Source: a bacterium (GTDB lineage: Bacteria > Patescibacteriota > Patescibacteriia > JAZDGP01). Taken from it: a stretch of 43,833 nt of DNA. Shown here piece after piece: positions 2,289 to 35,011 of the stretch. The stretch lies in NCBI GenBank assembly GCA_043806935.1, contig JAZDGP010000004.1, positions 1 to 43,833 on the forward strand, read 5' to 3'. Below the pieces are notes generated by a model that had not been told where the DNA came from, searched no databases, and saw nothing but the letters and a program-made list of their open reading frames with translations. Within the stretch, counting starts at the first letter, position 1, and the number at the start of each line of letters is the position of its first letter. The position numbers and the translations under genes were made by a program.

Positions 2289-3197
2289 TTAAGCTACAGC
2301 ATTGTGAAAAGTCTTGTCAAATAGGGGAGAGGAATAGAGGATGGAAATAACGTCGTCAATGCTGGAGCATACGACTGCTCCTTGTGACAATAATCTGTTT
2401 GTTCCCATTGATTGCGGAGACAGAATGGAGCCAGGCACAGCCAATACTTCACGGTTAGCTTCCAATGCCAGATTTGCCGTGATAAAGGTCCCTGATTTTA
2501 ATCCAGCTTCCACCACAATGGTAGCCAGTGACAATCCTGCGATGATACGGTTGCGTTCTGGGAAGGTGTAGTCAGTGGGATGGGCAAAAGGAACATATTC
2601 GCTAATTATTAACCCCCCGCTCTTTATAATCTCCTTGGTTAACTGCTCATTGGCTCTTGGGTATATTCTGCAAAGTCCGCTTCCAAGCACGGCAATTGTT
2701 TTTCCTTGCTTGGCAATGGCTGTCCTGTGGGCAGTACTATCAATACCAATTGCTAAGCCAGACACTGTTGTGATGCTGTGTTTAGATAAAGCTGTTACCA
2801 GCTCTTCAGTGACTGTGGTGCCGTAACGGCTTGGAGCTCTAGTGCCTACTACAGCCACCATGGGAGTGGAGAGAACTGAAATGTCTCCTTCAGTGAACAG
2901 AAAGGCAGGTGGATCTGGAGATTGTTTTAAGAGCAAAGGATAGCGTCCATCGTCATAAGGGATGAAACGATGCTTGCGCATGAATGCTGATTTGAACCGT
3001 TCCAGCTTAATTCTTGGTTTCCATTCTTGGAAGAGTTTTACGGCGTGTGGAGAAAAGCCTTTTGCAAGCCAGTCGTTTGCTGGAGCATGCCATGCTATTT
3101 CTAGATCTCCGTAGCTCTCTAAAAGATGGATAATCGTCACCCTGCCAAAACCAGGTATGGAATTAAAGGCTAAATAGTAGATATATTTTGTAGGCAT
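2289..3197 (-). CDS. dprA: DNA-processing protein DprA
   Basis: VAVVGTR, SGLAIGID, FPERNRIIAGLS, VVEAGLKSGT motifs; usual dprA-topA order. Confidence 0.96.
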   Translation of the reverse strand: MPTKYIYYLAFNSIPGFGRVTIIHLLESYGDLEIAWHAPANDWLAKGFSPHAVKLFQEWKPRIKLERFKSAFMRKHRFIPYDDGRYPLLLKQSPDPPAFLFTEGDISVLSTPMVAVVGTRAPSRYGTTVTEELVTALSKHSITTVSGLAIGIDSTAHRTAIAKQGKTIAVLGSGLCRIYPRANEQLTKEIIKSGGLIISEYVPFAHPTDYTFPERNRIIAGLSLATIVVEAGLKSGTFITANLALEANREVLAVPGSILSPQSMGTNRLLSQGAVVCSSIDDVISILYSSPLFDKTFHNAVA

Positions 3198-3225
3198 TGA
3201 CTTATTGTTAATAGTATGATAAGAT
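3197..3225 (+). promoter_or_regulatory. sigma70-type promoter TTGACT-17-(TGa)TAAGAT
   Basis: consensus match; the -35 overlaps the dprA start codon on the opposite strand. Confidence 0.6.
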
Positions 3226-3324
3226 GTAAATAATATAGAAACTTGTAATAACCCTCCTTTCTAGCAAAGAGCAAAAACGTACTTTTTGCAAAGAAAGGAA
3301 TTAACAACATTAGGAGGTAGCTTT

Positions 3325-3531
3325 ATGCCTATTAGTTTGGGAAAATTGGAAGAAATTTTTCCACTAGATATGATTGATTCTAGTGGTAAAATTATTGACC
3401 CGCCAGATTATTCTGGCTTCAGGGGTCAGCCAAAGAATTTATTTAAACAGAATTTTTTCTTCAGTTATATGCTCTGCCCAAGATGTGGTGCAGGGCTTAG
3501 GAGGGGGGAAGTATGTGGTAATTGTCATTAA
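3325..3531 (+). CDS. 68-aa orphan with C-terminal CxxC...CxxC zinc ribbon
   Basis: AGGAGG at 3312-3317 before ATG 3325; ends CPRCG...CGNCH; terminator follows. Confidence 0.7.
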   Translation: MPISLGKLEEIFPLDMIDSSGKIIDPPDYSGFRGQPKNLFKQNFFFSYMLCPRCGAGLRRGEVCGNCH

Positions 3532-3538
3532 TTTGTAA

Positions 3539-3575
3539 AGGCCCCTCTGTCAAAAGCGACGGCGGGGTTTGTTGT
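3539..3575 (+). terminator. intrinsic terminator
   Basis: GGCCCC..TGTC/GACG..GGGGTT imperfect stem plus T-rich tail. Confidence 0.55.
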
Positions 3576-3662
3576 TAATAAGTTTTATTTAGTAGAAAAG
3601 TTTTTAGTATTTTTCCTCTTGACCGGAAATAAATTTAGCGCTAAGTTAATTGTACAAAGCAT

Positions 3663-3989
3663 ATGTTTGAAATATTTCACAAATTATTTCGGTTCCTGTT
3701 TCCACACAGCAATCCAATAGACATCAAACGGCGGTATGGGCTGCCAGATGGTTTATCTATCCATATAAAGATGACCAACGATGGTTGGTTGGTGGCTACT
3801 GCTCCTGATCTTCCGGGATTGGTCACTCAAGCTCGGAATCGCGTTGAATTGCTGGAAATGGTCAATGACGCCGTATTGACGTATTTTGACGTGCCGAAAC
3901 GGGAAGCTGATGTTGTCTATGACCAATTGTTGTCTGAAGACGGGCAACTGGTAGAGTACCGGAGCAAACTACAGACCCGCACGACTTAA
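3663..3989 (+). CDS. hicB: HicB-like antitoxin
   Basis: GWLVATAPDLPGLVTQARNRVELLEMVNDAV matches the HicB partial RNase H fold pattern. Confidence 0.75.
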   Translation: MFEIFHKLFRFLFPHSNPIDIKRRYGLPDGLSIHIKMTNDGWLVATAPDLPGLVTQARNRVELLEMVNDAVLTYFDVPKREADVVYDQLLSEDGQLVEYRSKLQTRTT

Positions 3990-4000
3990 CTTCCATCACT

Positions 4001-4258
4001 ATGGGAGAGACTAATTTCAACCGACGGCAATGTCTGCGGGCATTGCGTAGGCTTGGCTTTACGATTACTCATGCTCGTCATGGTCGTCATGATAAATATT
4101 ACCCGTCACTGGAGATTAGTCGTGGGTTAAGCGGCCAACAGTCAAAGTTTATTATGATTCCGCGCCATAATGAATTACGGTGTCAGTCTGAGATTCTGCA
4201 AGAGTTGCGGCAGATGGGTGGCGATCGTTTGGTTGCTAATTTTACGCAGTCTCTCTAA
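4001..4258 (+). CDS. hicA: HicA-like mRNA interferase toxin
   Basis: LRRLGF...HGRH...IPRH pattern, basic 85 aa, adjacent to HicB-like gene. Confidence 0.7.
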   Translation: MGETNFNRRQCLRALRRLGFTITHARHGRHDKYYPSLEISRGLSGQQSKFIMIPRHNELRCQSEILQELRQMGGDRLVANFTQSL

Positions 4259-4294
4259 TTTTATTTTGTTTCATTATAGTAGTATAATTTCCTT

Positions 4295-4546: not shown

Positions 4547-4664
4547 TTGTTAGTTCTTGAATGATCGGCGCGTGAGTGTTGACAATACGTTTTAGACAGA
4601 TTAGGGTTAGGCCAAGAGTACAGCAAAGCAATGTCTTTGCTGGAATAACCAAGGAGGAATAGCT

Positions 4665-4856
4665 ATGAAACCATTTAACAGTTTATGGGAAAAATTGTCT
4701 TACGCCATTGTTTGTGGCTGGCATTCTTTTGCCAATAATAAAATCGTCAGGATCATTTGGGGTTGTTTGCTAGTAATTTTCGTGATGATCATCGGATGTA
4801 TAGTTGTTATTATCGCGTTAGGTGTTACTGTTAAGGATATAGTATTGGAAAGTTAA
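4665..4856 (+). CDS. 63-aa single-TM orphan
   Basis: TTGACA near 4579, AAGGAGG SD, long hydrophobic segment, terminator downstream. Confidence 0.7.
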   Translation: MKPFNSLWEKLSYAIVCGWHSFANNKIVRIIWGCLLVIFVMIIGCIVVIIALGVTVKDIVLES

Positions 4857-4924
4857 TACAAAAAGATGCCAATAACGATGGAATATGAAGATTGATATTT
4901 AAGGACGAAATGGTTCTTATTTTT

Positions 4925-4958
4925 AACAGCTGGTATAAATTTTACCAGCTGTTTTGTT
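4925..4958 (+). terminator. intrinsic terminator
   Basis: AACAGCTGGTA/TACCAGCTGTT stem plus T-tract. Confidence 0.7.
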
Positions 4959-4987
4959 TACTCTCTTAATTGTGAGATAATAAAAGC

Positions 4988-6406: not shown

Positions 6407-6412
6407 TCGTTT

Positions 6413-7893: not shown

Positions 7894-7922
7894 TTGACAA
7901 TCTTTGTAGGAAGTGCTAGTAT
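7894..7922 (+). promoter_or_regulatory. sigma70-type promoter TTGACA-17-(TGc)TAGTAT
   Basis: consensus match upstream of the small ORF at 8019. Confidence 0.65.
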
Positions 7923-8018
7923 ATAGGTAATAGATTTACTTTAATTTTGTTGTATAAACAGGTAAACCTCTCTAGCGCCGCGCTGGATTGATAAGCCATA
8001 AATAAGGAGAAATATACA

Positions 8019-8174
8019 ATGCCAACTGAATTGACAATTGGGGTTCAATATCTTGATCAGTGCGGAAAATTCAATGTTGGTTTTAACGAGATTGCCAACG
8101 ATAGTTGCATAGACATGTCTTGGTTTGACGAGGATTGGACCAGTCTTTGTCAACACATCGAATTTAGCAATTAG
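8019..8174 (+). CDS. 51-aa acidic orphan peptide (not in ORF track)
   Basis: TAAGGAG SD; MPTELTIGVQYLDQCGKFNVGFNEIANDSCIDMSWFDEDWTSLCQHIEFSN; own promoter and terminator. Confidence 0.65.
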   Translation: MPTELTIGVQYLDQCGKFNVGFNEIANDSCIDMSWFDEDWTSLCQHIEFSN

Positions 8175-8197
8175 TAGGGCTGGAAAATTTTACCAGC

Positions 8198-8236
8198 AAA
8201 CCGTGGGAATAAGATTTCTCACGGTTTTGTCTTTTT
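8198..8236 (+). terminator. intrinsic terminator
   Basis: AAACCGTGGGAA/TTCTCACGGTTT stem plus T-tract. Confidence 0.65.
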
Positions 8237-8745: not shown

Positions 8746-9892
8746 ATTTATTTATTTGGATTATTCCGCTTCCACTCCGGTGGATCCAGCGGTGGTAAAG
8801 GCAATGGAGCCGTACTGGAGCGAACAGTACGGTAACGCTTCGTCTATTCATGAGATGGGAAGAACTGCTCGGATAGCTGTGGAAGACAGCAGAAAGAAAG
8901 TAGCTTGTATCTTACATTGCGATCCATTGGAAATTGTTTTTACGGCAGGCGGCACGGAGAGCGTTAATTTAGCTATTACCGGCATTGTCAGAGCTAACCA
9001 GAGGAAAGGGAAGCATATTGTTACCACTGTTATTGAGCATCACACGGCGCTTCATGCCATTAACTATTTGGAGAAAGAAGGCTGGACTGTTACATACGTG
9101 CCAGTGGATAAGAACGGCCATGTGGATCCAATGGCAGTAGTGGACATTGTGAGAGACGACACGGTCTTGGTGTCAGTCATGTACGCTAATAACGAGATTG
9201 GTACTGTACAGCCTATAACGGAAATTAGCAGATTAGTAAAAGAGAAATATCCTCAAGTCTATTTTCACACTGACGCTTGTCAAGCCCCTGGGAGCTTGCC
9301 ATTAGGAGTTAATGATCTGGGAGTGGATCTTATGTCTTTAAGCGGCAGTAAGATTTACGGGCCTAAGGGCAGCGCTGTCTTGTACGTGAAGAATGGAGTG
9401 AAGATTGATCCTATTATTCACGGAGGAGGACAAGAAAGGAATTTACGGTCTGGCACTGAAAGTGTTTCATTGATCGTAGGGTTTGCCAAAGCACTGGAGT
9501 TAATAGAAGAAAACAGAGAACAGGAAACAAAGAGATTGATGGCATTAAGAGAACGATTGGTGACTCGCGTCTTGGCCGTTGTTCCTGGTGCGGTGCTTAA
9601 TGGCCAAGGAGACGTGCTTCCCAACAAAGCTAATTTTTCTATTCCTGGAATCAATGGCAATGAGTTGGTGTTAACTTTGGACAGATACGGAATTGGATGC
9701 AGTACAGCGTCAGCTTGCTCAAGCGGAAATCCACAGCCGTCTCATGTGGTGCTGGCATTGGGAGTGCCATATGAACTGGCCCAAGGGACTGTACGGTTCA
9801 GTTTAGGCAAGGATACGACGGATGATGATATTGCCTATTTATTGGAAGTGTTGCCTAAAGCAGTGAAGGAGGTAAGGAATAAAAAAGCATGA
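8738..9892 (+). CDS. iscS: group I cysteine desulfurase (IscS/NifS-like)
   Basis: IYLDY, GNASS, SKIYGPKG, STASACSS. Confidence 0.9.
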   Translation: MREFIYLDYSASTPVDPAVVKAMEPYWSEQYGNASSIHEMGRTARIAVEDSRKKVACILHCDPLEIVFTAGGTESVNLAITGIVRANQRKGKHIVTTVIEHHTALHAINYLEKEGWTVTYVPVDKNGHVDPMAVVDIVRDDTVLVSVMYANNEIGTVQPITEISRLVKEKYPQVYFHTDACQAPGSLPLGVNDLGVDLMSLSGSKIYGPKGSAVLYVKNGVKIDPIIHGGGQERNLRSGTESVSLIVGFAKALELIEENREQETKRLMALRERLVTRVLAVVPGAVLNGQGDVLPNKANFSIPGINGNELVLTLDRYGIGCSTASACSSGNPQPSHVVLALGVPYELAQGTVRFSLGKDTTDDDIAYLLEVLPKAVKEVRNKKA

Positions 9893-17571: not shown

Positions 17572-18114
17572 ATGACTAAGGGAATGATCCAAACGTACAC
17601 AGGAGAGGGCAAGGGCAAGACAACAGCCGCTTTAGGGCTGGTTATTAGGGCGTTGGGCAATGGTTTACGGGTAGGAATAGTTTATTTTGATAAGGGAGGT
17701 GAGTTTTATAATGAACGGAAGCTGTTGAATAAATTGATTGAGATTGGTTTGCCATTGCTATATGAAGCAACTGGCCTTCTTCGTTTTGATCCCGCGGCCA
17801 AGACCTTTAGGTTTGGAGTGAATGATGGCGATAAGAAAGAAGCGGAGCGAGGGTTAGTATTAGCCAAACAATTATCTAGTTGTGTTGATTTACTGATCTT
17901 AGACGAGCTTAATTCTACTGTGTCGTTGGGCATGCTGGTCGTGGAATCAGTGGTTGTTTTCTTAAAAGACAAGCCAGAGGGTTTGGAAGTTGTTTTAACT
18001 GGCAGGCAGGCGCCCAAAGAAATTATAGAATTAGCTGATCTGGTTACAGAAATGAAGATGGTGAAACATTATTACAAGCAGGGGGTGGAAGCTAGAGAAG
18101 GGATAGAGTATTGA
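17572..18114 (+). CDS. cobO: cob(I)alamin adenosyltransferase CobA/CobO/BtuR
   Basis: YTGEGKGKTTAALG, LILDE, EVVLTGR, ADLVTEM, GIEY. Confidence 0.93.
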   Translation: MTKGMIQTYTGEGKGKTTAALGLVIRALGNGLRVGIVYFDKGGEFYNERKLLNKLIEIGLPLLYEATGLLRFDPAAKTFRFGVNDGDKKEAERGLVLAKQLSSCVDLLILDELNSTVSLGMLVVESVVVFLKDKPEGLEVVLTGRQAPKEIIELADLVTEMKMVKHYYKQGVEAREGIEY

Positions 18115-18156
18115 CATATTTTGTAGATATGCTATAATTATAACAATAAGAACATC
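18106..18156 (+). repeat. 51-bp exact direct repeat copy 1, contains promoter TTGACA-16-(TGc)TATAAT
   Basis: identical to 18893-18943. Confidence 0.95.
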
Positions 18157-18229
18157 AAAATAACTTAAAAATTTCTTTAGATTAAGCCAATTTTGGCGTT
18201 AATTTAAAGGATATTTATTGGAGGATCAA

Positions 18230-18790
18230 ATGAAATCATTATTATTGTATGTAATAACTTTTGTGGTTTTATCTTCAAACGTATTCGCCCAAAACAGCCT
18301 TTTTGTTGAAAGCGAGTATAAGTATTCTGATGATCCGTCTGTAATCACTTACAGATTAGGAGCCAAACACGACTTTAATAGTAAAATCAGCTTCAGTTCT
18401 TTTGGGCTGGTGAACAAGAATTATGCTCAGGCTCATTTCAGCATCAATTACAAAATCACTGATTGGTTAAAGGCAGGAGTTGGCCAGGGAATAGAGCAAT
18501 CAAAAGAATTGTGGAGATTGGCAGCTAATCTGCAAATAATGAATGGGAGTTATAGTTGGGTTACTTTCTATGAACACGGGATGAATGGATATTGGTTTCA
18601 AACGGAATTAAAATATCAATTCAATCCATCTCTAAGTGTTGGGATCTTTGGCAGAAGATTTGTCGGGTTTGGACCAGAGATAGCGATAGCGATTCCGCAA
18701 ACACCTTTTGTTGTATGGACCGTGCCATACGCTTATGATATTGAAAGTAAAAAAAGCGGTGGTTTGATAGTTATTTTGTTACTGTTTTGA
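18230..18790 (+). CDS. secreted beta-barrel-like protein
   Basis: GGAGG SD, signal peptide ending VFA/Q, alternating aromatic/hydrophobic strands, C-terminal Phe. Confidence 0.65.
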   Translation: MKSLLLYVITFVVLSSNVFAQNSLFVESEYKYSDDPSVITYRLGAKHDFNSKISFSSFGLVNKNYAQAHFSINYKITDWLKAGVGQGIEQSKELWRLAANLQIMNGSYSWVTFYEHGMNGYWFQTELKYQFNPSLSVGIFGRRFVGFGPEIAIAIPQTPFVVWTVPYAYDIESKKSGGLIVILLLF

Positions 18791-18796
18791 TTCGTA

Positions 18797-18837
18797 AAGT
18801 CCTGTTTTATTAAAAGTAAAACAGGACTTTTGTTTTT
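18797..18837 (+). terminator. intrinsic terminator
   Basis: AAAGTCCTGTTTTA/TAAAACAGGACTTT stem plus T-tract. Confidence 0.8.
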
Positions 18838-18892: not shown

Positions 18893-18943
18893 GAGTATTG
18901 ACATATTTTGTAGATATGCTATAATTATAACAATAAGAACATC
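18893..18943 (+). repeat. 51-bp exact direct repeat copy 2 (promoter), followed by a tandem extra TAAGAACATC
   Basis: identical to 18106-18156. Confidence 0.95.
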
Positions 18944-19022
18944 TAAGAACATCCCTAAAATCAGCTGAATAAATCATCCAAATAATTGATTTATTCAGCG
19001 ATTTAAAATAAAGGAGAACACA

Positions 19023-19352
19023 ATGAAATATTTTAACACGACTCTTGGGCTTTCTATGCTTCCGGATGGAAAGTTTTACGTAGTCACTGTTGATGCTGAT
19101 GCCGCAAAATGTTTTTTCTCTTCTAATGATATTCAAAATATCGCTAATCCAACACATGCCAATAGTCTTCAAGCTATTATTCAAAAACTGGGCGTAGATG
19201 TTAGAGACGCCAAGGGTGGTAGAATTAGGTTAAGTTCAGGTGACCAATGTCTAATTGCGGAGATTTCTGGCATTCCTCGTGAAACCCGTGAATTTTCTGA
19301 TACTGAAATTGCCAGTGCGGTATTTAATTTTCGTATAGTCGAAGTATTATAA
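19023..19352 (+). CDS. DUF1874 (STIV B116/YddF/AcrIII-1)-like protein
   Basis: 109 aa; YFNTTLGLSML start, His45, KLGVDV...RIRLSSGDQCLI, PRE...EI, FRIVEV layout. Confidence 0.6.
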   Translation: MKYFNTTLGLSMLPDGKFYVVTVDADAAKCFFSSNDIQNIANPTHANSLQAIIQKLGVDVRDAKGGRIRLSSGDQCLIAEISGIPRETREFSDTEIASAVFNFRIVEVL

Positions 19353-19371
19353 CGTTTTTATTTGAAGTTGT

Positions 19372-19407
19372 ACCCCCTAGTATTATCTTAGGGGGTTTTG
19401 TATTTTT
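19372..19407 (+). terminator. intrinsic terminator
   Basis: ACCCCCTA/TAGGGGGT stem plus T-tract. Confidence 0.75.
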
Positions 19408-19472
19408 GGAGTTCTCTTTGTAAATTAGTTAGTTCCTTGTTTTTTACAGTCAGTGATGTTTTAATACCTAAC

Positions 19473-20024
19473 ATGATTAATCAACAAGAATCGTTTACAC
19501 CCATTAATATGGAGCAAACGCTAACCGAAGAAAAGATAGCAGAACTAGTTACAGAAGTTAAAGCAATGATAGCTCCTTTTTATAATGCCATTGAACAAGC
19601 TAGGAAAGCTAATGCGGACAGAGAAGTAGGAGGAAGGATTAAATCTGGCAAATTACAATTTATGGATGAATCGCAGTGGCTGAGCAGTTCGGTGGTCGGT
19701 GAATTTCATGAAGAGGAAAGAAAAATAACTAAAGACGGTTGGCTTACTTTCCATACGCATCCGGTAGCTGGCCTACCCCATGAATCAGCAGCTGATATCC
19801 TAGCGGCTTATTATCGTTTGCGGGAAGTGATTATTCATGAACAAGGTATTACTTTACTGATCGCTTTGAAAGAATTGCCAGTGGATATAATCACTAAATT
19901 GGACGAACAAGCTTGGAAGGAAGCGCAATTAGAAGAAGAAAAAAGCGGAGAGCAAGCGTATTGGTTTTGGAAAGGTATTCTTCAACAAAAACTGCCGGTA
20001 CGGGTCGTTAATTTTAAACTATAA
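19473..20024 (+). CDS. JAB/MPN-like metalloprotein
   Basis: REVGG...FHTHP-x7-SAAD resembles the JAMM motif; start uncertain (19473 or 19509). Confidence 0.6.
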   Translation: MINQQESFTPINMEQTLTEEKIAELVTEVKAMIAPFYNAIEQARKANADREVGGRIKSGKLQFMDESQWLSSSVVGEFHEEERKITKDGWLTFHTHPVAGLPHESAADILAAYYRLREVIIHEQGITLLIALKELPVDIITKLDEQAWKEAQLEEEKSGEQAYWFWKGILQQKLPVRVVNFKL

Positions 20025-20157: not shown

Positions 20158-20186
20158 TTGACAACATTAAATTATCGTGATAAGGT
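20158..20186 (+). promoter_or_regulatory. sigma70-type promoter TTGACA-17-(TGa)TAAGGT
   Basis: consensus match; upstream 46 nt homologous to 18858-18903. Confidence 0.65.
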
Positions 20187-20240
20187 GTTTAGTCATTTAG
20201 AACATTGAGTTCTGGTGATCAAAAACATTTGGAGGTTAAC

Positions 20241-21185
20241 ATGAAATCATTATTGTATGTAATAACCATTGTGGCGCTATCTTCAAGCATATTTGCTCAA
20301 CAATCTATTCGCATTGACGGTTTTGTTCATTTGCTGGACGGTTACAGTAAAACACCAATCGGCGGGCAGGTACAACGTTCCATGGTTAAACTGAGGTTAA
20401 ATAACGCTCAATATGGAGCAGTGGTTAACTTTGATTTAGCTGGACCACGGTTGTTGCACAATGCTTTTATCTGGTTCGGTCTTCCTCCTTTCGGTTTTGT
20501 CAATTCGTTTAAAATTTCTTTTGGGAAGACGATTCCGATTTTTGGAAACAACTATCCATTGTATCCTTCTGAAATTATCTTGATCAACTTTAATCCAAGC
20601 GCTAGTAAGATGTTGACTGTCAGGGATGTTGGCCTGAGTGCTCAATGGGAAACTCCTTGGGTTAAGGGCATTTGTTCCATCACTAATGGGACGGATACAA
20701 GGCTGGTTAATGGAGGAGACAACAATAATTCAAGAGACATTTCTCTCAGGTTGGTTAAAAAGTTTTGGTTTTTTTCGGTGGCGGCCAGCGCTCGTTTTGC
20801 TGATGCTGATTTTGCCAAGAGGCTGATTGGAGCGGATATAGAAGTTGCTTATGATAGTTTGAAAATAATATCCGAAATCATCCTCTCAAACATTGCTGGA
20901 TTTCCGGTGCTCGGGCAAACAAATGCGTTGATGTTGAACGCGGGTAATAAAGAATCAGTAGGTTTGAATGTAATGGGCGTTTATTCTTTTTCCCCTTGTG
21001 AATTTATCGCTGATTTTGATCATTACCATTCGGTGGTTAGCACTGAGCAAACGTATACATTTGGTATTAACTACCACTTGTCAAAACAGGTGAGATTTGC
21101 AGTAAATTGTATTCAGGTTGAAAATAAAACAACTGGCATTGAACGTAAAGTTTTATCCCAGTTGGAATACAAAATTAGTATTTAA
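20241..21185 (+). CDS. secreted porin-like (OprO/OprP-like) beta-barrel protein
   Basis: GGAGG SD, signal peptide, RDVGL...ITNG...DNNNSRDISLRL motif, YTFGINYH, QLEYKI terminal strand. Confidence 0.6.
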   Translation: MKSLLYVITIVALSSSIFAQQSIRIDGFVHLLDGYSKTPIGGQVQRSMVKLRLNNAQYGAVVNFDLAGPRLLHNAFIWFGLPPFGFVNSFKISFGKTIPIFGNNYPLYPSEIILINFNPSASKMLTVRDVGLSAQWETPWVKGICSITNGTDTRLVNGGDNNNSRDISLRLVKKFWFFSVAASARFADADFAKRLIGADIEVAYDSLKIISEIILSNIAGFPVLGQTNALMLNAGNKESVGLNVMGVYSFSPCEFIADFDHYHSVVSTEQTYTFGINYHLSKQVRFAVNCIQVENKTTGIERKVLSQLEYKISI

Positions 21186-21212
21186 CTATGAATTTAGATT
21201 TTGTTCCGCTTC

Positions 21213-21251
21213 AAAGTCCCGTTTCGTTGATTGAGACGGGATTTTTGTTTT
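21213..21251 (+). terminator. intrinsic terminator
   Basis: AAAGTCCCGTTTC/GAGACGGGATTTT stem plus T-tract. Confidence 0.75.
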
Positions 21252-21515: not shown

Positions 21516-21569
21516 GGCAGATAAAAACAGCCTCTGACAACAGAGGCTGTTTTCTGTTATAATGACCAT

Positions 21570-22967
21570 ATGAAAATAAAGTTCTGTGGCGCCGCCCAAA
21601 ACGTCACTGGGTCCAAACATCTGCTCCAGATCGGGGAGAAGAAAGTGCTGTTAGACTGCGGTCTGTTTCAAGGGAATCCTAGGGAATCTGCTGGCCTTAA
21701 CCGCCACTGGCCGTTTGATATCAAGGAAGTTTCTCATGTTGTTCTGTCACATGGGCATTTAGACCATTGCGGAGGAATTTTACGTTTGGCTAAAGAAGGC
21801 TGGAAAGGGAAGGTGTGGTGCACGGAAGCCACCAAAGACGTGGTGTACTGGATTCTTAAAGACGCGGCTTACATACAGCAGGGAGACTACGAGTACGCTG
21901 TAAGGAAAGCAAAGATGAAAGCGGAAGATATTCCTGAACCTTTGTTTGGGCCTGATGACGTGGATACCGCCATGGAGCTATTTGAAACGATTCCTTACCA
22001 ATCTTGGACTGACATTGAACCTAATATCCGTGTCAAGATGTATGACGCTGGACATATTTTAGGTTCATCCGTGATTGCTTTGGAGTACGTGGAAGATGGC
22101 GTTATAAGACGGCTTGGATTTTCTGGAGACTTAGGGAGAAAGAAAGTTCCTATATTAAGAGATCCGCAGGTGATTGAAGAGGATGTTGATATTTGGATCA
22201 TGGAGAGCACGTATGGAGACAGATTGCACGCTAGCATTGACGATTTGGAAACAAGATTAGTGGAAGTGATTAAGAAAGCGGTTGAACGGAAGGCTAAAAT
22301 CATCTGTCCGGCTTTCTCTTTGGGAAGAACGCAGGAATTGATTTATGTGTTACATAAGCTGACTGACGAAGGGAAATTGCCTCGTTTCCCAATGTACGTG
22401 GACAGCCCGTTAGCTGGCAGCATCACCACTGTCTTTGGCAAGCATTTAGATCTCTTTGATAACCACTCACGTGTTGATTTCTTAAACCATGGAGATAATC
22501 CGTTTGGATTCAGGAATCTGACGTATACCAGAGACAAGACCGCTTCTGAAGCGCTCAATGGCATGCCTGGACCTATGCTGATCATATCAGCTAGCGGCAT
22601 GGCCAATGCCGGTAGAGTATTGCATCACCTGAAGCATAACGTCAGCGATCCCAACAACATGGTGCTGATCACTGGATTCATGGCCAAGCACACGTTAGGC
22701 AGAAGCTTGGTGGAGAAGGAACCGACGGTTAGGATCTTTGGAGAGAGTTATCCGGTCAGGGCGGAAATCCAGATCTTTAACGAATTCTCCGCTCACGCTG
22801 ATTACCAAGGTTTGATAGATTACACATTAAGCTTGAAAGGGATTAAGAAGATATTCCTGGTGCACGGTGAAGCTGGGCAAACTAATATCTTAAAAGCAAG
22901 GCTGGAGAACCTGAAACAAGGCTGGGAGGTGATTGTACCTGCTTACGAGGAAGAATTCATTGTATGA
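21570..22967 (+). CDS. MBL-fold beta-CASP ribonuclease
   Basis: VTGS, DCG, SHGHLDH, AGHILGS, ESTYG, FSAHAD, VHGE. Confidence 0.93.
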   Translation: MKIKFCGAAQNVTGSKHLLQIGEKKVLLDCGLFQGNPRESAGLNRHWPFDIKEVSHVVLSHGHLDHCGGILRLAKEGWKGKVWCTEATKDVVYWILKDAAYIQQGDYEYAVRKAKMKAEDIPEPLFGPDDVDTAMELFETIPYQSWTDIEPNIRVKMYDAGHILGSSVIALEYVEDGVIRRLGFSGDLGRKKVPILRDPQVIEEDVDIWIMESTYGDRLHASIDDLETRLVEVIKKAVERKAKIICPAFSLGRTQELIYVLHKLTDEGKLPRFPMYVDSPLAGSITTVFGKHLDLFDNHSRVDFLNHGDNPFGFRNLTYTRDKTASEALNGMPGPMLIISASGMANAGRVLHHLKHNVSDPNNMVLITGFMAKHTLGRSLVEKEPTVRIFGESYPVRAEIQIFNEFSAHADYQGLIDYTLSLKGIKKIFLVHGEAGQTNILKARLENLKQGWEVIVPAYEEEFIV

Positions 22968-25343: not shown

Positions 25344-25688
25344 ATGCATTATTGGAATTTAGTTAGGTACGTTATTGCTCAATTGTTGCGGAAAATCGGG
25401 TATGATTTCCATGAAGCTGATGATACTAGAGTAGCCGCTATGAAACAGGCAATAGCTGATGTTGGCGGCAGGATTGAATTTGCCATTGAGCGCCATCCTG
25501 ATGGGGTATGGACAGCGGAGTCGATCAATATCCAAGGGATAATCACTGGCGGGAAAGGTTTTGGCCAAGCGCCAAGAGAAATTAAAGACGCTGTTTTTAC
25601 CTACTTTGGCATTCCGCCTCATTTGTGCAATGACGCTTTGTTGCGAACTGAAGGTGATTTAACCGCACGACAATTGGTGTATGGGTAA
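25344..25688 (+). CDS. hicB: HicB-like antitoxin
   Basis: DGVWTAESINIQGIITGG...IKDAVFTYFGIP, similar to 3663-3989. Confidence 0.65.
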   Translation: MHYWNLVRYVIAQLLRKIGYDFHEADDTRVAAMKQAIADVGGRIEFAIERHPDGVWTAESINIQGIITGGKGFGQAPREIKDAVFTYFGIPPHLCNDALLRTEGDLTARQLVYG

Positions 25689-25920
25689 TCGCAGTTTGGG
25701 TGATATCACGCAGGCTCATTGGTTGCGAGCCTGCGCTAAATTAGGTTTGGTAATAGATACCACTGCTGGCAAGGGTAGCCACGCGCGAGTGATCCATCCT
25801 TCAACTCATCAGATATTGACTATTCAGTACAAAACCCATAAGGTTCTTAACCAAAAGATATTTAAAACTCTGTCGCGTTGGAATTTTACTGAAGATGCCA
25901 TTTGGGAAGTGTTACGGTAA
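25681..25920 (+). CDS. hicA: HicA-like toxin
   Basis: KLGL...GKGSH motif; overlaps the antitoxin stop. Confidence 0.75.
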   Translation: MGNRSLGDITQAHWLRACAKLGLVIDTTAGKGSHARVIHPSTHQILTIQYKTHKVLNQKIFKTLSRWNFTEDAIWEVLR

Positions 25921-30254: not shown

Positions 30255-30309
30255 AACTGGGTTAACCAGTTTTATTGCTTTATATTCCAATGTATACTAT
30301 AAAGACTAT

Positions 30310-31557: not shown

Positions 31558-31589
31558 TAGTTTTATAAGCTATTATCACGACAATAGAT

Positions 31590-32132: not shown

Positions 32133-32136
32133 AAAG

Positions 32137-32168
32137 ATGCAAGCCCGTTATTTTTAACGGGCTTGCGT
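32137..32168. terminator. terminator between convergent genes
   Basis: GCAAGCCCGTTA/TAACGGGCTTGC stem. Confidence 0.75.
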
Positions 32169-32170
32169 GA

Positions 32171-32785
32171 TCAGATAATTTTTACAGGTATTACGCCACG
32201 GTCGGGGTAGAAGCTAAACTTGCCTCGCATGGGTTCTATCTTTATTTTCTTGTCATGCCTGATGCCATGTATTTCAAAAATAGCATCATCAATTTTATAA
32301 CAATGGACAAACGAATTCAGAGCTGTCTTATTGGTAAACAATTTTAAAAGAAATGCGAGCTCTAGCAATTCATGAGGAGTGGCTGCCCGGTGTCCAGCGC
32401 CCAATTTTTTGCTTACTGCTTCGTCGTTGCCGATAAAATGATCACCAGCGAGACCTTCAAGGTTAGCAGCAATGTAGTATCCATTATTACTAGGCTGATT
32501 GTCCCATGGAAAAGCTTTTATTGAATCAGGATGGATCCAAGACAGTTTTTCATAATTTTGGCAAAGTTGGACAATTTTTGTTAAAGGAGTGCTGGTGATA
32601 AAACTCACTATCCAGTTCTCAGGGAGCGGTTGTGATATGTCTAGCGTTGAAGAAAAACAAATTTCTTTTTCAAAAGGTATGTTTGCTCCCAATTCATTAA
32701 GAGCGGTTATCACCCTTTCTCTGCTGAAAAATTTATCTTTGCCAAGGATTTCAGTTATTTGATTCAGGTCTGTTATCTTTACCAT
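32171..32785 (-). CDS. 204-aa orphan
   Basis: GGAGG SD, own TTGACT promoter from 32880 on the minus strand. Confidence 0.75.
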   Translation of the reverse strand: MVKITDLNQITEILGKDKFFSRERVITALNELGANIPFEKEICFSSTLDISQPLPENWIVSFITSTPLTKIVQLCQNYEKLSWIHPDSIKAFPWDNQPSNNGYYIAANLEGLAGDHFIGNDEAVSKKLGAGHRAATPHELLELAFLLKLFTNKTALNSFVHCYKIDDAIFEIHGIRHDKKIKIEPMRGKFSFYPDRGVIPVKII

Positions 32786-32919
32786 AATTCCTCCATTATT
32801 TTTGTTTTTAAAGAACGCTACTAAGATTATTCTTAGCAGGTTGTATAACCATCTTAATCCTATCTGGCAAAAGCAGTCAACTTGACAGTAAAAACCCTTT
32901 TTGCTAACCTGTTAGCATC

Positions 32920-33025
32920 TACCGAAGACAGCGTGATGCTTACTAAAGCTTAATTTCCTTAGGGAAGTCCGCCGAGGCGCCAATTAATTTTTAAAAGGTC
33001 GATGGCCTCGTAGAGTCTGTGGTAG
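32920..33025 (+). ncRNA. L10 leader (ribosomal protein autoregulatory RNA)
   Basis: CCGAAGACAG...TTAA...CCGCCGAGG...CCTCG directly upstream of rplJ. Confidence 0.75.
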
Positions 33026-33042
33026 CCACAGATTTTTTATTT

Positions 33043-33594
33043 ATGCCAAAGACAAAACAAGAAAAGATAGAGGAATTAGAGGAATTGCGAGATGTCTTGA
33101 AACAAGCGCAAGCGGTGGTGTTTACCACTTTCAAGCAAGTGCCGGTCAAAGACATTGACGCTCTGCGCAAAGATCTGCGCCAAGCTAATATCTCCTACCA
33201 GGTTATTAAACGGAACCTATTGGTTAAAGCATTGGCTGAACAGGGAATGGATGTGCCTAATTTAGAATCATGGAGGGATAATATAGGCATTGCAGTGACT
33301 AGCGGCGACCAAGTAGCTCCAGCAAAAGCGTTATTTTCCTTTTCTAAGAAGTTCTTGGAAGAGAACAAGGAAAAGAAACCAAAGGGAATGGTGCTGGAAG
33401 GCGGAATCTTGGACAAGAAGTTCTTGGATAGCCAGCAGGTCATTGCCTTGGCCTTACTGCCTGGCAGAGAAGAGCTGTTGGCTAAACTTGTAGGTAGTCT
33501 AGCATCTCCAATGAGAGGATTAGCTGTTGTTTTGCAAGGAAACATTAGAGGATTGGTACAGGTCTTAAACGCTAAAGCCCAACAGGGCTCTTAA
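33043..33594 (+). CDS. rplJ: 50S ribosomal protein L10
   Basis: [23 protein letters not shown]. Confidence 0.96.
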
Positions 33595-33614
33595 TCATTA
33601 AAATAAACAAAGAT

Positions 33615-33998
33615 ATGGAAAAGATAGAAGTGCCGGCCAAGTTTAAGGAGCTTGTGGAGCAGATTGAAAAGCTCTCTGTCCTTGATCTGGCTGAGTTAGT
33701 GAAAGTTTTGGAAGCTAAATTCGGCGTGTCAGCGGCTGCTCCTGCAGCTGCTCCTGTAGCCGCGGCTGTGGCTCCAGCGGAAGAGAAGAGCTCATTTAAC
33801 GTGGAGCTTACTGACGCTGGCGCTAATAAGATCAATGTCATTAAAGCCATGAGGGAAGTGACGCAATTAGGATTGGCTGACGCCAAAGCGATCGTTGATA
33901 GCGCTCCTAAGATGGTGAAGGAAGGGGCGACTAAGGAGGAAGCAGATAATATTAAGAAGAAACTGGAAGAAGCTGGCGGCAAGGTAACGCTTAAGTAA
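33615..33998 (+). CDS. rplL: 50S ribosomal protein L7/L12
   Basis: [11 protein letters not shown], Ala/Pro hinge, KINVIK, GLADAK. Confidence 0.98.
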
Positions 33999-34001
33999 AA
34001 G

Positions 34002-34037
34002 AAAAAGAGTTCCTGGTAATACAGGAGCTCTTTTTTA
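34002..34037. terminator. bidirectional terminator
   Basis: AAAAAGAGTTCCTG/CAGGAGCTCTTTTT. Confidence 0.8.
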
Positions 34038-34043
34038 TACAAA

Positions 34044-34448
34044 TTAGTGGATAACAATAGCGAATCGTTTGCTGTTGGTTCCAGATTTATGGAACTGTAA
34101 CTCCAACACGTCAGTTCGGACAAGAATTGGCGTGGGAGCGAAGTTGAATTGGTCCTTCATCTTTGCCAATAATTCGCTTAATTTCACTTTTCCGCCCTTT
34201 GAGTTGAACAGCTTGGATAAACAATTTCTCATGGACGGGTCTTCAAATTCCACATACACGGTAAAAGCCTCCGCCAAATTAGCAATGATCATGATTCTGG
34301 ATACAAGTTCAAAATCAATCGTCTGTCCAAGTGTTTTGGAAACTATGTCCAAGGACACTGTATGCCATTTGGACTTGTCTAACAATTCAATCGCTACTTT
34401 GATAAATTTTTCGTTTTGAGGTATTAGCAACCCGTATAAATCTGTCAT
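34044..34448 (-). CDS. 134-aa orphan, distant paralog of 34464-34904
   Basis: ORF with AAGGA upstream; colinear similarity to neighbour. Confidence 0.7.
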   Translation of the reverse strand: MTDLYGLLIPQNEKFIKVAIELLDKSKWHTVSLDIVSKTLGQTIDFELVSRIMIIANLAEAFTVYVEFEDPSMRNCLSKLFNSKGGKVKLSELLAKMKDQFNFAPTPILVRTDVLELQFHKSGTNSKRFAIVIH

Positions 34449-34463
34449 GGTCGTCCTTTGTTA

Positions 34464-34904
34464 TTATAGTTGAGATACCAATGAAAATTTATAACCATTA
34501 GTATCTTCTATATTGTGAATTCTTTTTAACAAACCCGCGTTATAGATTTGAATGGCCATTGGATACTTAAACTTATCATAAAATTCAGTTTGCAATTCGC
34601 TAAACCACGGTAGGTTTTTCGTTATTTTTGTGACATAGTCAAGCAATCCTACATCATCATTCAGTAGAACAAAATGAAAAACCCAAGGCTTGATATTGAT
34701 CGGTAAGGCTTCCATCTGTTCCTTCTTGCCAATCAAAAGATGAAGGTTTCTGTTGTTGATAATCAGGTTCGTCAGTTTATTATCTATGATAGACAATAAA
34801 CTAGATTTTTTCGTTATTGTTTCTATGATTGACTTAAGGGCAGTTTCATTTACTTCTCCATCTTTTGGTAAAGGCAGGGTATACAGTTTTACTATAGTGC
34901 TCAT
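34464..34904 (-). CDS. 146-aa orphan
   Basis: AGGAGGT SD; TTGACT promoter near 34983 on the minus strand. Confidence 0.75.
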   Translation of the reverse strand: MSTIVKLYTLPLPKDGEVNETALKSIIETITKKSSLLSIIDNKLTNLIINNRNLHLLIGKKEQMEALPINIKPWVFHFVLLNDDVGLLDYVTKITKNLPWFSELQTEFYDKFKYPMAIQIYNAGLLKRIHNIEDTNGYKFSLVSQL

Positions 34905-35011
34905 TTTTACCTCCTATGTTTTTGGTGTTGTTAAATGTTGAGTAATTGATAATAATCTAATCATATTTTCATTATTTAGTCAATAGCAATGGTTATGCTA
35001 TTCTTACATCA

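Follow-up and report, generated by a model that had tools for sequence, protein, structure and literature searches.

Shine-Dalgarno-led genes form a distinct, compositionally atypical minority class in a Patescibacteria genome

In the genome studied here (G000), a 702-kb metagenome-assembled genome with 644 called genes from a tiny bacterium of symbiont type in the Uhr-/Kuenen-/Magasanikbacteria-like class of Patescibacteria (CPR), the genes led by a Shine-Dalgarno (SD) sequence are a distinct, compositionally atypical, stand-alone minority class. Eight of them were described in the window, the 43,833-nt stretch of contig JAZDGP010000004.1 that was analyzed. We lean toward reading these units as accessory, probably horizontally acquired, moron-like cassettes that are read by the cell's own ribosomes.

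Start signals across the genome

Genes and their starts were called with a purpose-made rough caller, and the 644 starts were sorted into strong SD (48), weak SD (16), leaderless-like (about 157; TANNNT ending 6–7 nt upstream of ATG), and no-signal (423). The start position of GGAG peaked at −11 to −9 (9, 17, and 16 genes, versus 0–4 elsewhere), and TANNNT peaked at −12 (74 genes, versus about 13–30 at other positions). The SD class is undercounted, because the caller missed or mis-started several small units, among them those at 20241, 4665, and 8019. A caller-independent scan for GGAGG or AGGAG followed by 4–9 nt, ATG, and an open reading frame of at least 100 aa gave 110 ORFs from 2848 SD motif sites, compared with 39/2126, 62/3391, and 54/2524 for control motifs of the same composition and 19/2848 for the reverse complement. 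These counts bear out the two expression grammars proposed in the preliminary description. It is highly improbable that the class is an artifact, whether of biased gene and start calling or of contigs that are chimeric or were mis-binned from another organism. The rough caller did mis-start genes (20205 for 20241, for example, and a lipoprotein on contig C24), and the two-gene contig C7 carries one SD gene and no conserved gene; however, the caller-independent scan indicated the same class size, the same pattern appeared in G011, a single-contig genome of 1.19 Mb, and the contamination of G000 is 0.78%. On 25 contigs, that of the window among them, SD units are flanked by conserved CPR genes, and since all 26 contigs with SD genes, save C7, also bear genes matching G011, these genes are not mis-binned.

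Strong-SD genes had a lower GC content than leaderless-like and no-signal genes (0.403 versus 0.444 and 0.437), a lower median coding score per codon (0.18 versus 0.31 and 0.30; Mann-Whitney p = 2e-11), and a longer median upstream gap (188 nt versus 61 and 32 nt). Sorted by coding-score quintile, lowest first, they numbered 26, 13, 6, 1, and 2. A TTGAC −35 box was found upstream of 27/42 SD genes, 15/79 leaderless-like genes, and 41/182 no-signal genes.

The core genes named earlier as SD-less (topA, nrdJ, cobO, rplJ, and rplL) indeed had no SD, and none of the 20 genes listed for the ribosomal-protein operon on contig C25 belonged to the strong-SD class. The leaderless look of three starts was also upheld, with TATAAT 6 nt upstream of ATG at 4295 and 21570 and TATTCT 7 nt upstream at 35012. 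The following native genes serve as examples.

21534–22967, + strand: leaderless-type beta-CASP/RNase J-like gene (21570–22967), CTGACA-18-TATAAT with TG, 6 nt to ATG
32904–33998, + strand: leadered SD-less genes rplJ (ATG 33043) and rplL (33615), preceded by an L10 leader (Rfam RF00557, 32904–33049)

Of the 71 leaderless-like genes with the −10 element at −12, 68% have G at −14 and 51% have T at −15, together with a TTG −35; the leaderless native promoter is of the sigma-70 type (TGnTAnnnT plus TTG −35), as for SD genes. The genome encodes an S1 protein with four domains, and its 16S rRNA ends in ...GGATCACCTCCTTTCT, with the anti-SD CCUCC present and intact. The preliminary description had weighed its reading against an intact anti-SD combined with SD use in many core genes; the former was found, and SD use in core genes proved rare. 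Native genes mostly start without an SD, about a quarter looking leaderless with an extended −10 (TGnTAnnnT) 6–7 nt before ATG. Operon-internal genes are spaced closely enough for coupling or re-initiation, and leadered genes such as rplJ have A/T-rich start regions. The SD-led minority, roughly 7–10% of genes, consists of stand-alone cassettes, each with a strong −35/−10 of its own, a leader some tens of nucleotides long, and a canonical SD; most also end in a terminator. Transcription would be carried out by the cell's own RNA polymerase, and, because the CCUCC anti-SD is retained, translation would fall to its own ribosomes.

The eight SD-led units of the window

The units, named here by their start positions, and one neighboring ORF are as follows; terminators are hairpins followed by a T-run.

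3197–3575, + strand: unit 3325, promoter TTGACT-17-TAAGAT 3197–3225, leader of about 90 nt, AGGAGG 3312–3317, coding sequence 3325–3531, hairpin 3539–3570 (−18.3 kcal)
4579–4953, + strand: unit 4665, TTGACA 4579, AAGGAGG 4651–4657, coding sequence 4665–4856, terminator 4925–4953
7894–8227, + strand: unit 8019, promoter TTGACA-17-TAGTAT with TG 7894–7922, AAGGAG 8004–8009, coding sequence 8019–8174 (51 aa), terminator 8198–8227
18111–18830, + strand: unit 18230, promoter with TG matching 12 of 12 consensus positions 18111–18138, GGAGG 18220–18224, coding sequence 18230–18790, terminator 18796–18830
18898–19396, + strand: unit 19023, promoter (12 of 12) 18898–18925, AAGGAG 19011–19016, coding sequence 19023–19352 (109 aa), terminator 19372–19396
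19398–20024, + strand: ORF 3' of unit 19023, start at 19398 (TTG) or 19509 (ATG), without an SD of its own
20158–21245, + strand: unit 20241, TTGACA 20158, GGAGG 20231–20235, coding sequence 20241–21185 (314 aa), terminator 21213–21245
32139–32880, − strand: unit 32785, promoter TTGACT-18-TAAGAT 32880–32851, GGAGG 32794–32790, coding sequence 32785–32171 (204 aa), terminator 32166–32139
34011–34983, − strand: unit 34904, promoter 34983–34954, AGGAGG 34915–34910, coding sequence 34904–34464 (146 aa), second ORF 34448–34044 (134 aa) with a weak AAGGA, weak terminator 34026–34011

The promoter-like sites were found by scanning, except that TTGACA at 4579 and 20158 was read by eye. All eight starts are preceded by AGGAGG, AAGGAGG, AAGGAG, or GGAGG ending 4–9 nt before ATG. 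The description of eight self-contained units held in full for the GGAG(G), and a TTGAC-type promoter and hairpin terminator accompany most of them, with leaders of 35–120 nt.

The orphan character of the units was likewise evident: none of the seven scanned reached the Pfam cut-off, compared with 30/43 other ORFs of the window. The product of unit 3325 (68 aa, with a CxxC...CxxC tail) gave a sub-threshold Pfam match to DZR_2 and no family in PHROGs or NCBIfam, and unit 8019 found no family in the latter two collections. Searches of Pfam, PHROGs, and NCBIfam returned no family for unit 4665 (63 aa, a single hydrophobic span), units 32785 and 34904, or the ORF at 19398–20024, in which the motif HTHPVAGLPHESAAD, read by eye, may be JAMM/MPN-like. 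Units 32785 and 34904 also had no homolog in the same-class genomes G011 and G015.

Predicted cargo and shared modules

Two products had been described as outer-membrane-like barrels, and their Atlas models agree with this, resembling KdgM- and OprP-type porins. Unit 18230 encodes 186 aa with a signal peptide (...VFA|Q) and F as the final residue; its model (pTM 0.76) matched Bacteroidota-rich clusters (TM 0.84–0.86) and KdgM/NanC clusters (0.75–0.79), and a small KdgM/NanC-like beta-barrel is predicted. For unit 20241, the model (pTM 0.73) matched porin clusters (TM 0.81–0.84), the Pfam Porin_4 score was 24.3 bits, under the cut-off of 27, and PF07396 did not recognize it; an OprP/Porin_O_P-like porin is predicted. 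The nearest Atlas clusters of both barrels were mostly from Bacteroidota, Gemmatimonadota, or Balneolota. The AcrIII-1-like cargo was corroborated by an AF2 model of the unit 19023 product (pLDDT 93), which Foldseek matched to 6scf (TM 0.74), 2j85 (0.75), and 2x4i (0.76), each with probability 1.00; it is a DUF1874/AcrIII-1/Crn2-fold protein. Among its 44 listed homologs, identity was 58–71%, with the last one at 50%, and 29/44 carried PF08960.

Outside the window, 12/40 SD genes reached the Pfam cut-off and 28/40 did not; the former include HU, ThyA, dCMP deaminase, formyltransferase, ABC exporters, a PAS histidine kinase, and a radical-SAM protein. The cargo is thus largely unknown or accessory. 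A signal-peptide-like N-terminus was seen in 13/48 SD genes, versus 22/157 leaderless-like and 54/423 no-signal genes, and its A/G-Q ending occurs alike in SD genes and in secreted proteins of typical composition. Three SD-led proteins of the genome have T9SS sorting domains, and a T9SS-type domain was found in 60/201 genomes of the class. For one protein combining an M6 peptidase with a CTD, the named relatives come from Bacteroidia and Melioribacteraceae.

It had been proposed that the units are tuned for another organism's ribosomes, that is, for expression in a host cell after DNA or RNA transfer, where the SD would serve the host's ribosomes and the products would be sorted by the host's BAM and T9SS. 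Two outer-membrane-type barrels, which this cell apparently cannot use, and three T9SS-sorting proteins fit this, given that searches of the genome for Omp85/BamA and LpxC found none (positive controls matched) and SprA_N gave no match (its positive control was likewise silent), as do the self-contained build of the units and the TTGAC −35 box that is commoner at SD genes. However, the intact anti-SD makes a foreign ribosome unneeded, the class holds cell-autonomous genes (HU, ThyA, ABC exporters, a histidine kinase), the signal peptides end in A/G-Q like those of typical-composition genes, native leaderless genes share the same sigma-70 −10 architecture, and the sorting signals are also accounted for by acquisition from a diderm. 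VirB4 was not found with PF03135, a model that may miss monoderm-type VirB4, and we know of no precedent for a host-directed expression mechanism of this kind. Were the host a member of Bacteroidota, the combination of an SD with TTGACA/TATAAT would not suit its expression grammar. We regard the proposal as unsupported and as the least probable of the readings considered.

Several signals recur as modules. A 51-nt promoter is identical before units 18230 and 19023 (18106–18156 = 18893–18943). An unrelated lipoprotein gene on C24 is preceded by 111 nt of promoter plus leader that are 75% alike, and contig C46 has a related promoter. The signal-peptide DNA is alike in units 18230 and 20241, in G135 one leader-plus-SD is shared by two adjacent genes, and the end of unit 8019 (8181–8234) recurs, with 89% identity over 55 nt, 3' of a further SD gene, which lies on contig C1. 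Some SD-unit signals were thus made or copied in place.

Conservation and origin

Conservation was compared with two genomes of the same class, G011 and G015, both of other families. A tblastn match in G011 was found for 10/48 strong-SD genes versus 399/580 other genes (odds ratio 0.12, p = 8e-11), and in none of the 358 reciprocal-best pairs was the SD strong in both genomes. The class split recurred in both of these genomes. Within G011, 51/1026 genes had a strong SD, 43/51 falling into the bottom two score quintiles, at a GC of 0.499 versus 0.455; matches in G000 were found for 7/51 strong-SD, 95/184 leaderless-like, and 341/767 no-signal genes. The corresponding figures for G015 were 10/621 strong-SD genes, 9/10 in the two lowest quintiles, GC 0.442 versus 0.387, and matches for 1/10, 99/157, and 281/439. 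Conservation across relatives was accordingly poor, and the composition is atypical. Around the units, gene order is too scrambled relative to relatives to reveal insertion sites. Barrel homologs occurred in 10 of the 200 other class genomes (11/201 with G000) and, likewise counting G000, DUF1874 in 5/201 and unit 20241 in 1/201. The homologs of this cargo in other genomes tended to be SD-led too: CTD genes in 5/5 cases with a visible start, barrels in 4/7 with a strong and 2/7 with a partial SD, and DUF1874 genes in 2/2 examined.

The searches turned up no close donor and none sharing the same flanks; the best outside matches were 26–40% identical. A word search with unit 20241 against 5.8 billion proteins returned only itself, its six relatives among 1.8 billion representatives were 26–35% identical, and the best matches of the M6/CTD protein were 27–51% identical over partial length. 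Horizontal acquisition, offered earlier as the simpler alternative, fits better than host expression; that it was recent is unsupported, because the outside matches are distant and no donor was found, and old acquisition cannot be told apart here from fast native evolution. Bacteroidota rarely use SD, so if they were the donors, the SD could not have arrived with the gene.

A considerably less probable reading is that the units are native to the lineage and evolve fast, as genes for the surface, the secretome, and conflict. They would encode secreted, surface, and membrane proteins as well as proteins of defense or counter-defense, and their rapid evolution would account for the atypical composition and the missing homologs. 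Their strong promoter and SD would serve high or burst expression, with modules copied onto new coding sequence. The shared promoters, leaders, and signal-peptide DNA, the frequency of signal peptides and their common A/G-Q ending, the T9SS-type domain across the class, and the failure to find an outside donor all favor it, and a pattern like such copying is seen in Borrelia and Mycoplasma, in their families of variable surface proteins. Against it stand the patchy families, the diderm-type folds and domains with nearest clusters in FCB phyla, and the ordinary enzymes in the class (ThyA, dCMP deaminase, the radical-SAM protein). Moreover, the GC deviation of strong-SD genes is downward in G000 and upward in G011 and G015, which is more in keeping with a foreign origin than with one uniform native bias.

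We therefore favor the cassette interpretation, in which the SD genes would be an accessory, fast-turnover part of the genome, probably for the most part acquired horizontally, with some perhaps derived from diderm FCB-type bacteria. In their behavior the cassettes would resemble the "morons" of phages or islets of a single gene, and some may later have spread by the copying of promoter, leader, and signal-peptide modules.

Start signals across the genome and in its relatives

The 702-kb genome (G000; 51 contigs, 96% complete, 0.78% contamination), of which the window is one complete contig of 43.8 kb (C4), was scored for start signals with a purpose-written, crude caller based on hexamer log-odds. 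The caller returned 657 genes, the starts of which were picked by coding score alone and were therefore blind to upstream signals, and signals were counted over the 644 genes with enough upstream flank. GGAG began most often at -11 to -9, in 9, 17, and 16 genes (0-4 genes at any other position), and TANNNT at -12, in 74 genes (about 13-30 at the remaining positions); in 157 genes TANNNT lay at -14 to -11. The 644 genes were divided into 48 with a strong Shine-Dalgarno-type (SD) site (SDstrong), 16 with a weak one (SDweak), 157 leaderless-like genes, and 423 with neither signal; any GGAG/GAGG motif in range was found in only 64. A caller-independent scan for GGAGG or AGGAG, followed after 4-9 nt by ATG and an ORF of at least 100 aa, gave 110 ORFs from 2848 motif sites. 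Same-composition control motifs gave 39/2126, 62/3391, and 54/2524, and the reverse complement gave 19/2848, which leaves an excess of some 50-60 genuine SD genes. As another SD measure, duplex energy was computed against the entire 16S tail. Values of -10 kcal or lower occurred at 37 of 635 starts versus 14 and 20 in controls, but weak duplexes were not enriched at starts (at -4.4 kcal the controls exceeded the real starts); the measure was too noisy, and SD sites were therefore classed by motif plus spacing.

Two expression grammars, one of SD-less core genes and one of SD-led units, had been proposed in the preliminary description, and genome-wide scoring bore this out: SD use is rare, and the split holds across the whole genome. 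None of the 20 listed genes of the ribosomal-protein operon on contig C25, where intergenic gaps are 2-22 nt, was SDstrong. Of the 71 leaderless-like genes whose -10 element is at -12, 68% have G at -14 and 51% have T at -15, and a TTG -35 element accompanies them. Since native leaderless genes have sigma-70-type promoters, one polymerase can serve both classes. The genome also encodes a four-domain S1 protein, which offers a route for SD-less genes with leaders.

The 3' end of the 16S rRNA (C13) reads ...GGATCACCTCCTTTCT / ...CACCUCCUUUCU, and the anti-SD sequence CCUCC is present. This intact tail on the cell's own ribosomes speaks against the earlier suggestion that the SD-led units are tuned to the ribosomes of another organism. 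The preliminary description had itself named an intact anti-SD together with SD use in many core genes as evidence against that suggestion; the first was found and the second was not, as the C25 operon illustrates. Elsewhere in the 16S gene, positions 2024-2045 of locus L001 read GTGCCAGCAGCAGCGGTAATAC, with A where CCGCGG normally stands. We take this stretch to be the usual 515F primer site, and given the change there, standard amplicon surveys may miss this lineage.

TopA of G000 is most similar, at about 60%, to sequences from MAGs labelled Uhrbacteria, Kuenenbacteria, Buchananbacteria, Magasanikbacteria, Parcubacteria, and similar groups, which places the genome in the Patescibacteria (CPR). 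The relatives compared belong to the same class as G000 and all come from other families. A low-scoring SD minority was present in both genomes scored in the same way.

Table. SD-led genes in two relatives (quintiles are of coding score)
G011 (1.19 Mb, one contig): 51/1026 SDstrong; 43 in the two lowest quintiles; GC 0.499 vs 0.455 for the rest; CCUCC intact; match in G000 for 7/51 SDstrong genes vs 95/184 and 341/767 in the other two classes
G015 (0.70 Mb): 10/621 SDstrong; 9 in the two lowest quintiles; GC 0.442 vs 0.387 for the rest; tail ...GGATTATCTCCTTTCT; match in G000 for 1/10 SDstrong genes vs 99/157 and 281/439 in the other two classes

The GC of the SD class is shifted downward relative to the rest in G000 and upward in G011 and G015. 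The 16S 3' end of G015 (C1:47933-48000) has UCUCC instead of CCUCC. This variant fits a passage of PMC9297842 according to which, in part of the Parcubacteria, searches often fail to find the anti-SD motif, and, as far as that passage and the UCUCC of G015 go, the anti-SD constraint is relaxed within the CPR.

The eight units and the wider SD-led class

The core genes recognized by Pfam in the window are topA, dprA, fur, the SUF operon, nrdJ, cobO, a beta-CASP RNase, NifU, an MraY-like transferase, DivIC, ftsEX, a DEAD helicase, rplJ-rplL (with an Rfam L10 leader), glycosyltransferases, an S8 peptidase, an AAA protein, and an HNH protein. A DNA-level search of 30 class relatives matched only tRNAs and conserved genes such as the DEAD helicase, ftsE, rplL, and cobO. 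Among these genes lie the eight units, named by their CDS starts:

u3325, SD-led unit
u4665, SD-led unit
u8019, SD-led unit
u18230, SD-led unit encoding a predicted porin-like barrel
u19023, SD-led unit encoding a protein with an AcrIII-1-like predicted fold
u20241, SD-led unit encoding a second predicted porin-like barrel
u32785, minus strand, SD-led unit
u34904, minus strand, SD-led unit

As first described, all eight carry AGGAGG, AAGGAGG, AAGGAG, or GGAGG, the motif ending 4-9 nt before the ATG. Promoter-like sites were found in the consensus scan for six of them, two of which have a perfect 12/12 TTGACA-16-TATAAT with an upstream TG (18111 and 18898), and TTGACA was read by eye upstream of the other two. 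Terminators consisting of a hairpin and a T-run are clear in six units and weak in one; in u3325, for which the terminator scan returned nothing, there is a hairpin of -18.3 kcal. The absence of SD sites from topA, nrdJ, cobO, rplJ, and rplL was likewise confirmed, as were the leaderless-looking starts at 4295, 21570, and 35012, where a TATAAT-type box lies 6-7 nt before the ATG.

Two other features of the window are recorded here. A 244-nt repeat (39193-39436) is 97.5% identical to C34:10052-10295, at a contig end, and adjoins a low-GC stretch (0.32-0.35; 39.7-43.8 kb) with the S8 peptidase, AAA, and HNH genes, possibly a mobile or defence island. Two pairs of small genes (3663-4258 and 25344-25920), neither SD-led, have as second member a gene with a sub-threshold HicA_toxin match (19.1 and 20.4 bits; cut-off 27), and are, judged by sequence, possible HicBA-like toxin-antitoxin pairs.

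Across the genome, the SDstrong genes differ from the other classes in composition, layout, and conservation.

Table. Start classes in G000
SDstrong: mean GC 0.403; median coding score per codon 0.18; median upstream gap 188 nt; tblastn match in G011 10/48
Leaderless-like: mean GC 0.444; median coding score 0.31; median upstream gap 61 nt; match in G011 111/157
No signal: mean GC 0.437; median coding score 0.30; median upstream gap 32 nt; match in G011 288/423

The difference in coding score was significant (p = 2e-11), with 26, 13, 6, 1, and 2 SDstrong genes from the lowest to the highest quintile. A match in G011 was far rarer for SDstrong than for other genes (odds ratio 0.12, p = 8e-11, Fisher's test), and none of the 358 reciprocal-best pairs between G000 and G011 was SDstrong in both genomes. 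TTGAC lay within 150 nt upstream of 27/42 SD genes, versus 15/79 leaderless-like and 41/182 no-signal genes. None of the seven window units scanned reached a Pfam cut-off, versus 30 of 43 other window ORFs; outside the window, 12 of the 40 SDstrong genes scanned did so (3 of 43 were left unscanned).

The class includes HU, ThyA, a dCMP deaminase, a cytidylyltransferase, a formyltransferase, two ABC exporters, a PAS histidine kinase, and a radical-SAM protein. The SD-led HU was considered as proof that the cell's own ribosomes use SD sites, an argument weakened by a second HU gene in G000. A Bacteroidota-specific signal-peptide signature was also considered and rejected: the A/G-Q ending of the signal peptides of SD genes is found in secreted proteins of typical composition as well. 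Upstream of the SD-led thyA and of the SD-led cytidylyltransferase/dCMP-deaminase operon (C34:5555-5747 and 8976-9444) lies a common 47-nt segment, 91% identical and partly palindromic, which may be a common operator.

That the class is an artefact is very improbable: SD genes lie on 26 contigs, all of which, except one tiny contig, also bear conserved genes, and mis-binning therefore does not explain it. Expression on host ribosomes, which the preliminary description had offered to account for units so distinct in their signals, can hardly be credited. Besides the intact anti-SD, native leaderless genes also use sigma-70-type promoters, the S1 protein offers the cell's own SD-less leadered genes a route, HU, ThyA, the exporters, and the histidine kinase have no obvious role in another cell, and the signal peptides of SD genes end like those of typical secreted proteins of this genome. 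No VirB4 was detected in G000 with PF03135, a model that may miss monoderm-type VirB4; a monoderm-type T4SS in Patescibacteria is described in PMC12102498.

Cargo of the SD-led genes

The product of u19023 had been called AcrIII-1-like, which proved right at the fold level. An AF2 model built from a 22-sequence alignment (pLDDT 93) was matched by Foldseek to AcrIII-1 (6scf), STIV B116, SIRV1 ORF114a, and Csx1-Crn2 (entries 6scf, 2j85, 2x4i, 2j6b, and 8y7f; TM 0.69-0.79; probability 1.00 for 6scf, 2j85, 2x4i, and 8y7f). The protein itself had no Pfam match at E < 0.01, and a profile run against the PDB reached STIV B116 no better than at E = 0.15; of the 44 homologs listed, 29 have a precomputed PF08960 assignment, and identities are 58-71%, falling to 50% for the final entry. 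H45, which we take to be the counterpart of the catalytic His of AcrIII-1, is invariant in the 22 aligned sequences. In fold, PF08960 homologs, and invariant His, the protein resembles the AcrIII-1/Crn2 (DUF1874) cyclic-oligoadenylate ring nucleases, and it may share their activity; unlike the solved members, to which it is 14-20% identical, it is encoded on a CPR chromosome. The ORF directly after it (19398-20024, plus strand) contains HTHPVAGLPHESAAD, by its look presumably a JAMM/MPN HxHx7SxxD motif, and no match in Pfam, PHROGs, or NCBIfam supports that assignment. The two genes may form a conflict module.

The two OMP-like barrels of the preliminary description, u18230 and u20241, were upheld as predicted folds with Sec signal peptides. 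The ESM Atlas model of u18230 (pTM 0.76) reached TM 0.75-0.79 with KdgM/NanC clusters and TM 0.84-0.86 with unnamed clusters that are mostly of Bacteroidota, and that of u20241 (pTM 0.73) matched Porin_O_P-type clusters at TM 0.81-0.84, predicted models being compared with predicted models throughout. A single-sequence AF2 model of u20241 reached pLDDT 33 and was left out of the fold search. Pfam scores stayed below cut-off (Porin_4, 24.3 bits with a cut-off of 27; DUF5723, 16.4 bits), and PF07396 matched nothing in 201 genomes, the query's own gene in G000 included. The signal peptides of u18230 (18230-18295) and u20241 (20241-20303) are almost the same (MKSLLLYVITFVVLSSNVFAQ and MKSLLYVITIVALSSSIFAQ), and their DNA is alike save for a 3-nt indel, whereas the mature parts differ.

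Both proteins resemble the porins of diderm FCB bacteria (KdgM/NanC, OprO/P) in the Sec signal peptide and the predicted 12- and 16/18-strand-type barrels. They differ from them in being SD-led, in falling below Pfam cut-offs, and in their genome, where neither Omp85/BamA (PF01103) nor LpxC was found at 96% completeness; PF01103 matched 7 of 14 control genomes, and LpxC was also matched in control genomes. SprA_N gave no match in G000 or in any control genome. A second likeness to FCB bacteria, at 49-53 bits, is to T9SS cargo: three SD-led proteins outside the window (C17, C45, and C8) carry the C-terminal T9SS sorting domain (CTD; Por_Secre_tail, PF18962) at 49.0-53.4 bits (cut-off 27; 45.3 in hmmscan), and PF18962 matched in 60 of 201 class genomes. 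All five CTD genes with a visible start, from four genomes, have GGAGG or AGGAG and a signal peptide; four of seven homologs of u18230 have a strong SD and two a partial one, and both DUF1874 homologs examined are SD-led. Among 201 genomes including G000, 11 have the barrel family of u18230, 5 have DUF1874, and 1 has u20241.

What stays strange is the presence, across a CPR class, of SD-led porins and T9SS domains in genomes without BamA or LpxC. These genes form the basis of a proposal that we consider unlikely, namely that the SD-led cassettes are a host-interface toolkit, whose products would work in or upon the outer membrane of a diderm host of FCB type. Class members lacking BamA or an LPS synthesis gene would nevertheless keep, strongly express, and exchange diderm-type envelope genes, among them those for OprP- and KdgM-like porins, T9SS-CTD proteins, and lipoproteins. 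A porin might, for instance, enter the host envelope where the two cells meet and tap nutrients there; the most daring version has the genes expressed by the host. If this were true, the SD/TTGACA grammar would mark a functionally dedicated class, and its cargo would name the host lineage.

Origin of the cassettes and comparison with known systems

No near-identical foreign copy or donor was found in the collections searched, in which the best outside matches were 26-40% identical. A word search of 5.8 billion proteins returned u20241 only itself; six relatives at 26-35% identity, all on short contigs, were found among 1.8 billion representatives, and none in a scan of genome contigs. Relatives of the M6-plus-CTD protein show 27-51% identity along parts of the sequence, and two of these relatives are named, from Bacteroidia and Melioribacteraceae. 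A phage origin of the units is unsupported: scans of viral contigs with the DUF1874 alignment and with u18230 gave no match, and none of 10 query sequences matched PHROGs or NCBIfam. Synteny with G011 and G015 yielded no insertion sites, nrdJ, cobO, and their neighbours being absent or scattered there. As an alternative to host expression, recent horizontal acquisition had been put forward. Two marks of islets and morons, atypical composition and patchy distribution, are present and agree with acquisition; "recent" is unsupported, as no donor copy or empty site was found and the best matches are distant.

Several signal modules recur within genomes. An identical 51-nt consensus promoter precedes the adjacent, unrelated u18230 and u19023 (18106-18156 and 18893-18943). 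A 111-nt promoter plus leader, 75% alike, stands before an unrelated lipoprotein gene (C24:12518-12739, minus strand), where a conserved GCCAA...TTGGC hairpin was read by eye, and a related promoter lies on C46:838-878 (minus strand). A 55-nt segment at the u8019 terminator (8181-8234) is 89% identical to C1:26887-26941, downstream of another SD-led gene (C1:27007-27651, minus strand), so that terminator modules seem to be shared too. In the relative G135, locus L251 (C4:31367-34690) has at about 261-1830 one short leader both before a DUF1874 homolog and before the gene upstream; it translates as MSLQLRKEQIM and contains AAAGGAG. Because modules are copied within genomes, part of the SD grammar, at least, was supplied or propagated in place. 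The SD class as a native, fast-evolving secretome with conflict genes that share 5' modules would be a possible, if rather unlikely, account.

That account is compatible with the reading towards which we lean, an SD-less native core with moron-like SD cassettes read by the cell's own machinery. Native genes would initiate without SD sites through leaderless starts, coupling, or A-rich leaders, and an accessory 7-10% of genes would be cassettes of strong promoter, leader, SD, and terminator. Most of these were probably gained horizontally, partly from diderm FCB-type bacteria, and later reshuffled.

Phage morons and single-gene islets are stand-alone genes with their own promoter and terminator, odd composition, patchy distribution, and accessory or conflict cargo. 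The SD units share all of these features; unlike morons, they lie outside recognizable prophages, scattered among the core genes of a 0.7-Mb genome. Bacteroidota and Cyanobacteria are low-SD lineages that keep the anti-SD; for part of the Parcubacteria its loss has been reported (PMC9297842). G000 resembles the low-SD lineages in that core genes, including those for ribosomal proteins, lack SD sites while CCUCC may persist; it differs in combining few SD genes with frequent leaderless starts and in that its few strong SDs belong to accessory cassettes and not to one or two regulatory genes. In GeneMarkS-2 group C (e.g. Mycobacterium and Deinococcus), as outlined in the pertinent section of PMC6028130, many first genes have a -10 box 6-8 nt before the start, and the remaining operons and internal genes carry SD sites. 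G000 is similar in having a Pribnow-type box before many starts and a second population with leader and SD, served by one ribosome set; unlike group C as outlined there, 423 of its 644 genes have neither signal, and SD sites are confined to an accessory, compositionally atypical class. That section of PMC6028130 draws no link between its "atypical genes" and SD use. A full-text literature search, covering the main texts of articles outside subscription journals, turned up neither an SD-accessory link nor T9SS domains or porins described for Patescibacteria.

The split provides a sequence rule for this CPR class, in which a strong SD with a -35 box denotes the accessory pool and leaderless or SD-less starts the native core. 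With such a rule, gene starts in CPR genomes could be called better, and gene flow into these genomes could be marked independently of base composition. If the porins and T9SS-domain proteins are functional, they would be relevant to the way in which episymbionts contact their hosts and to the identity of those hosts.
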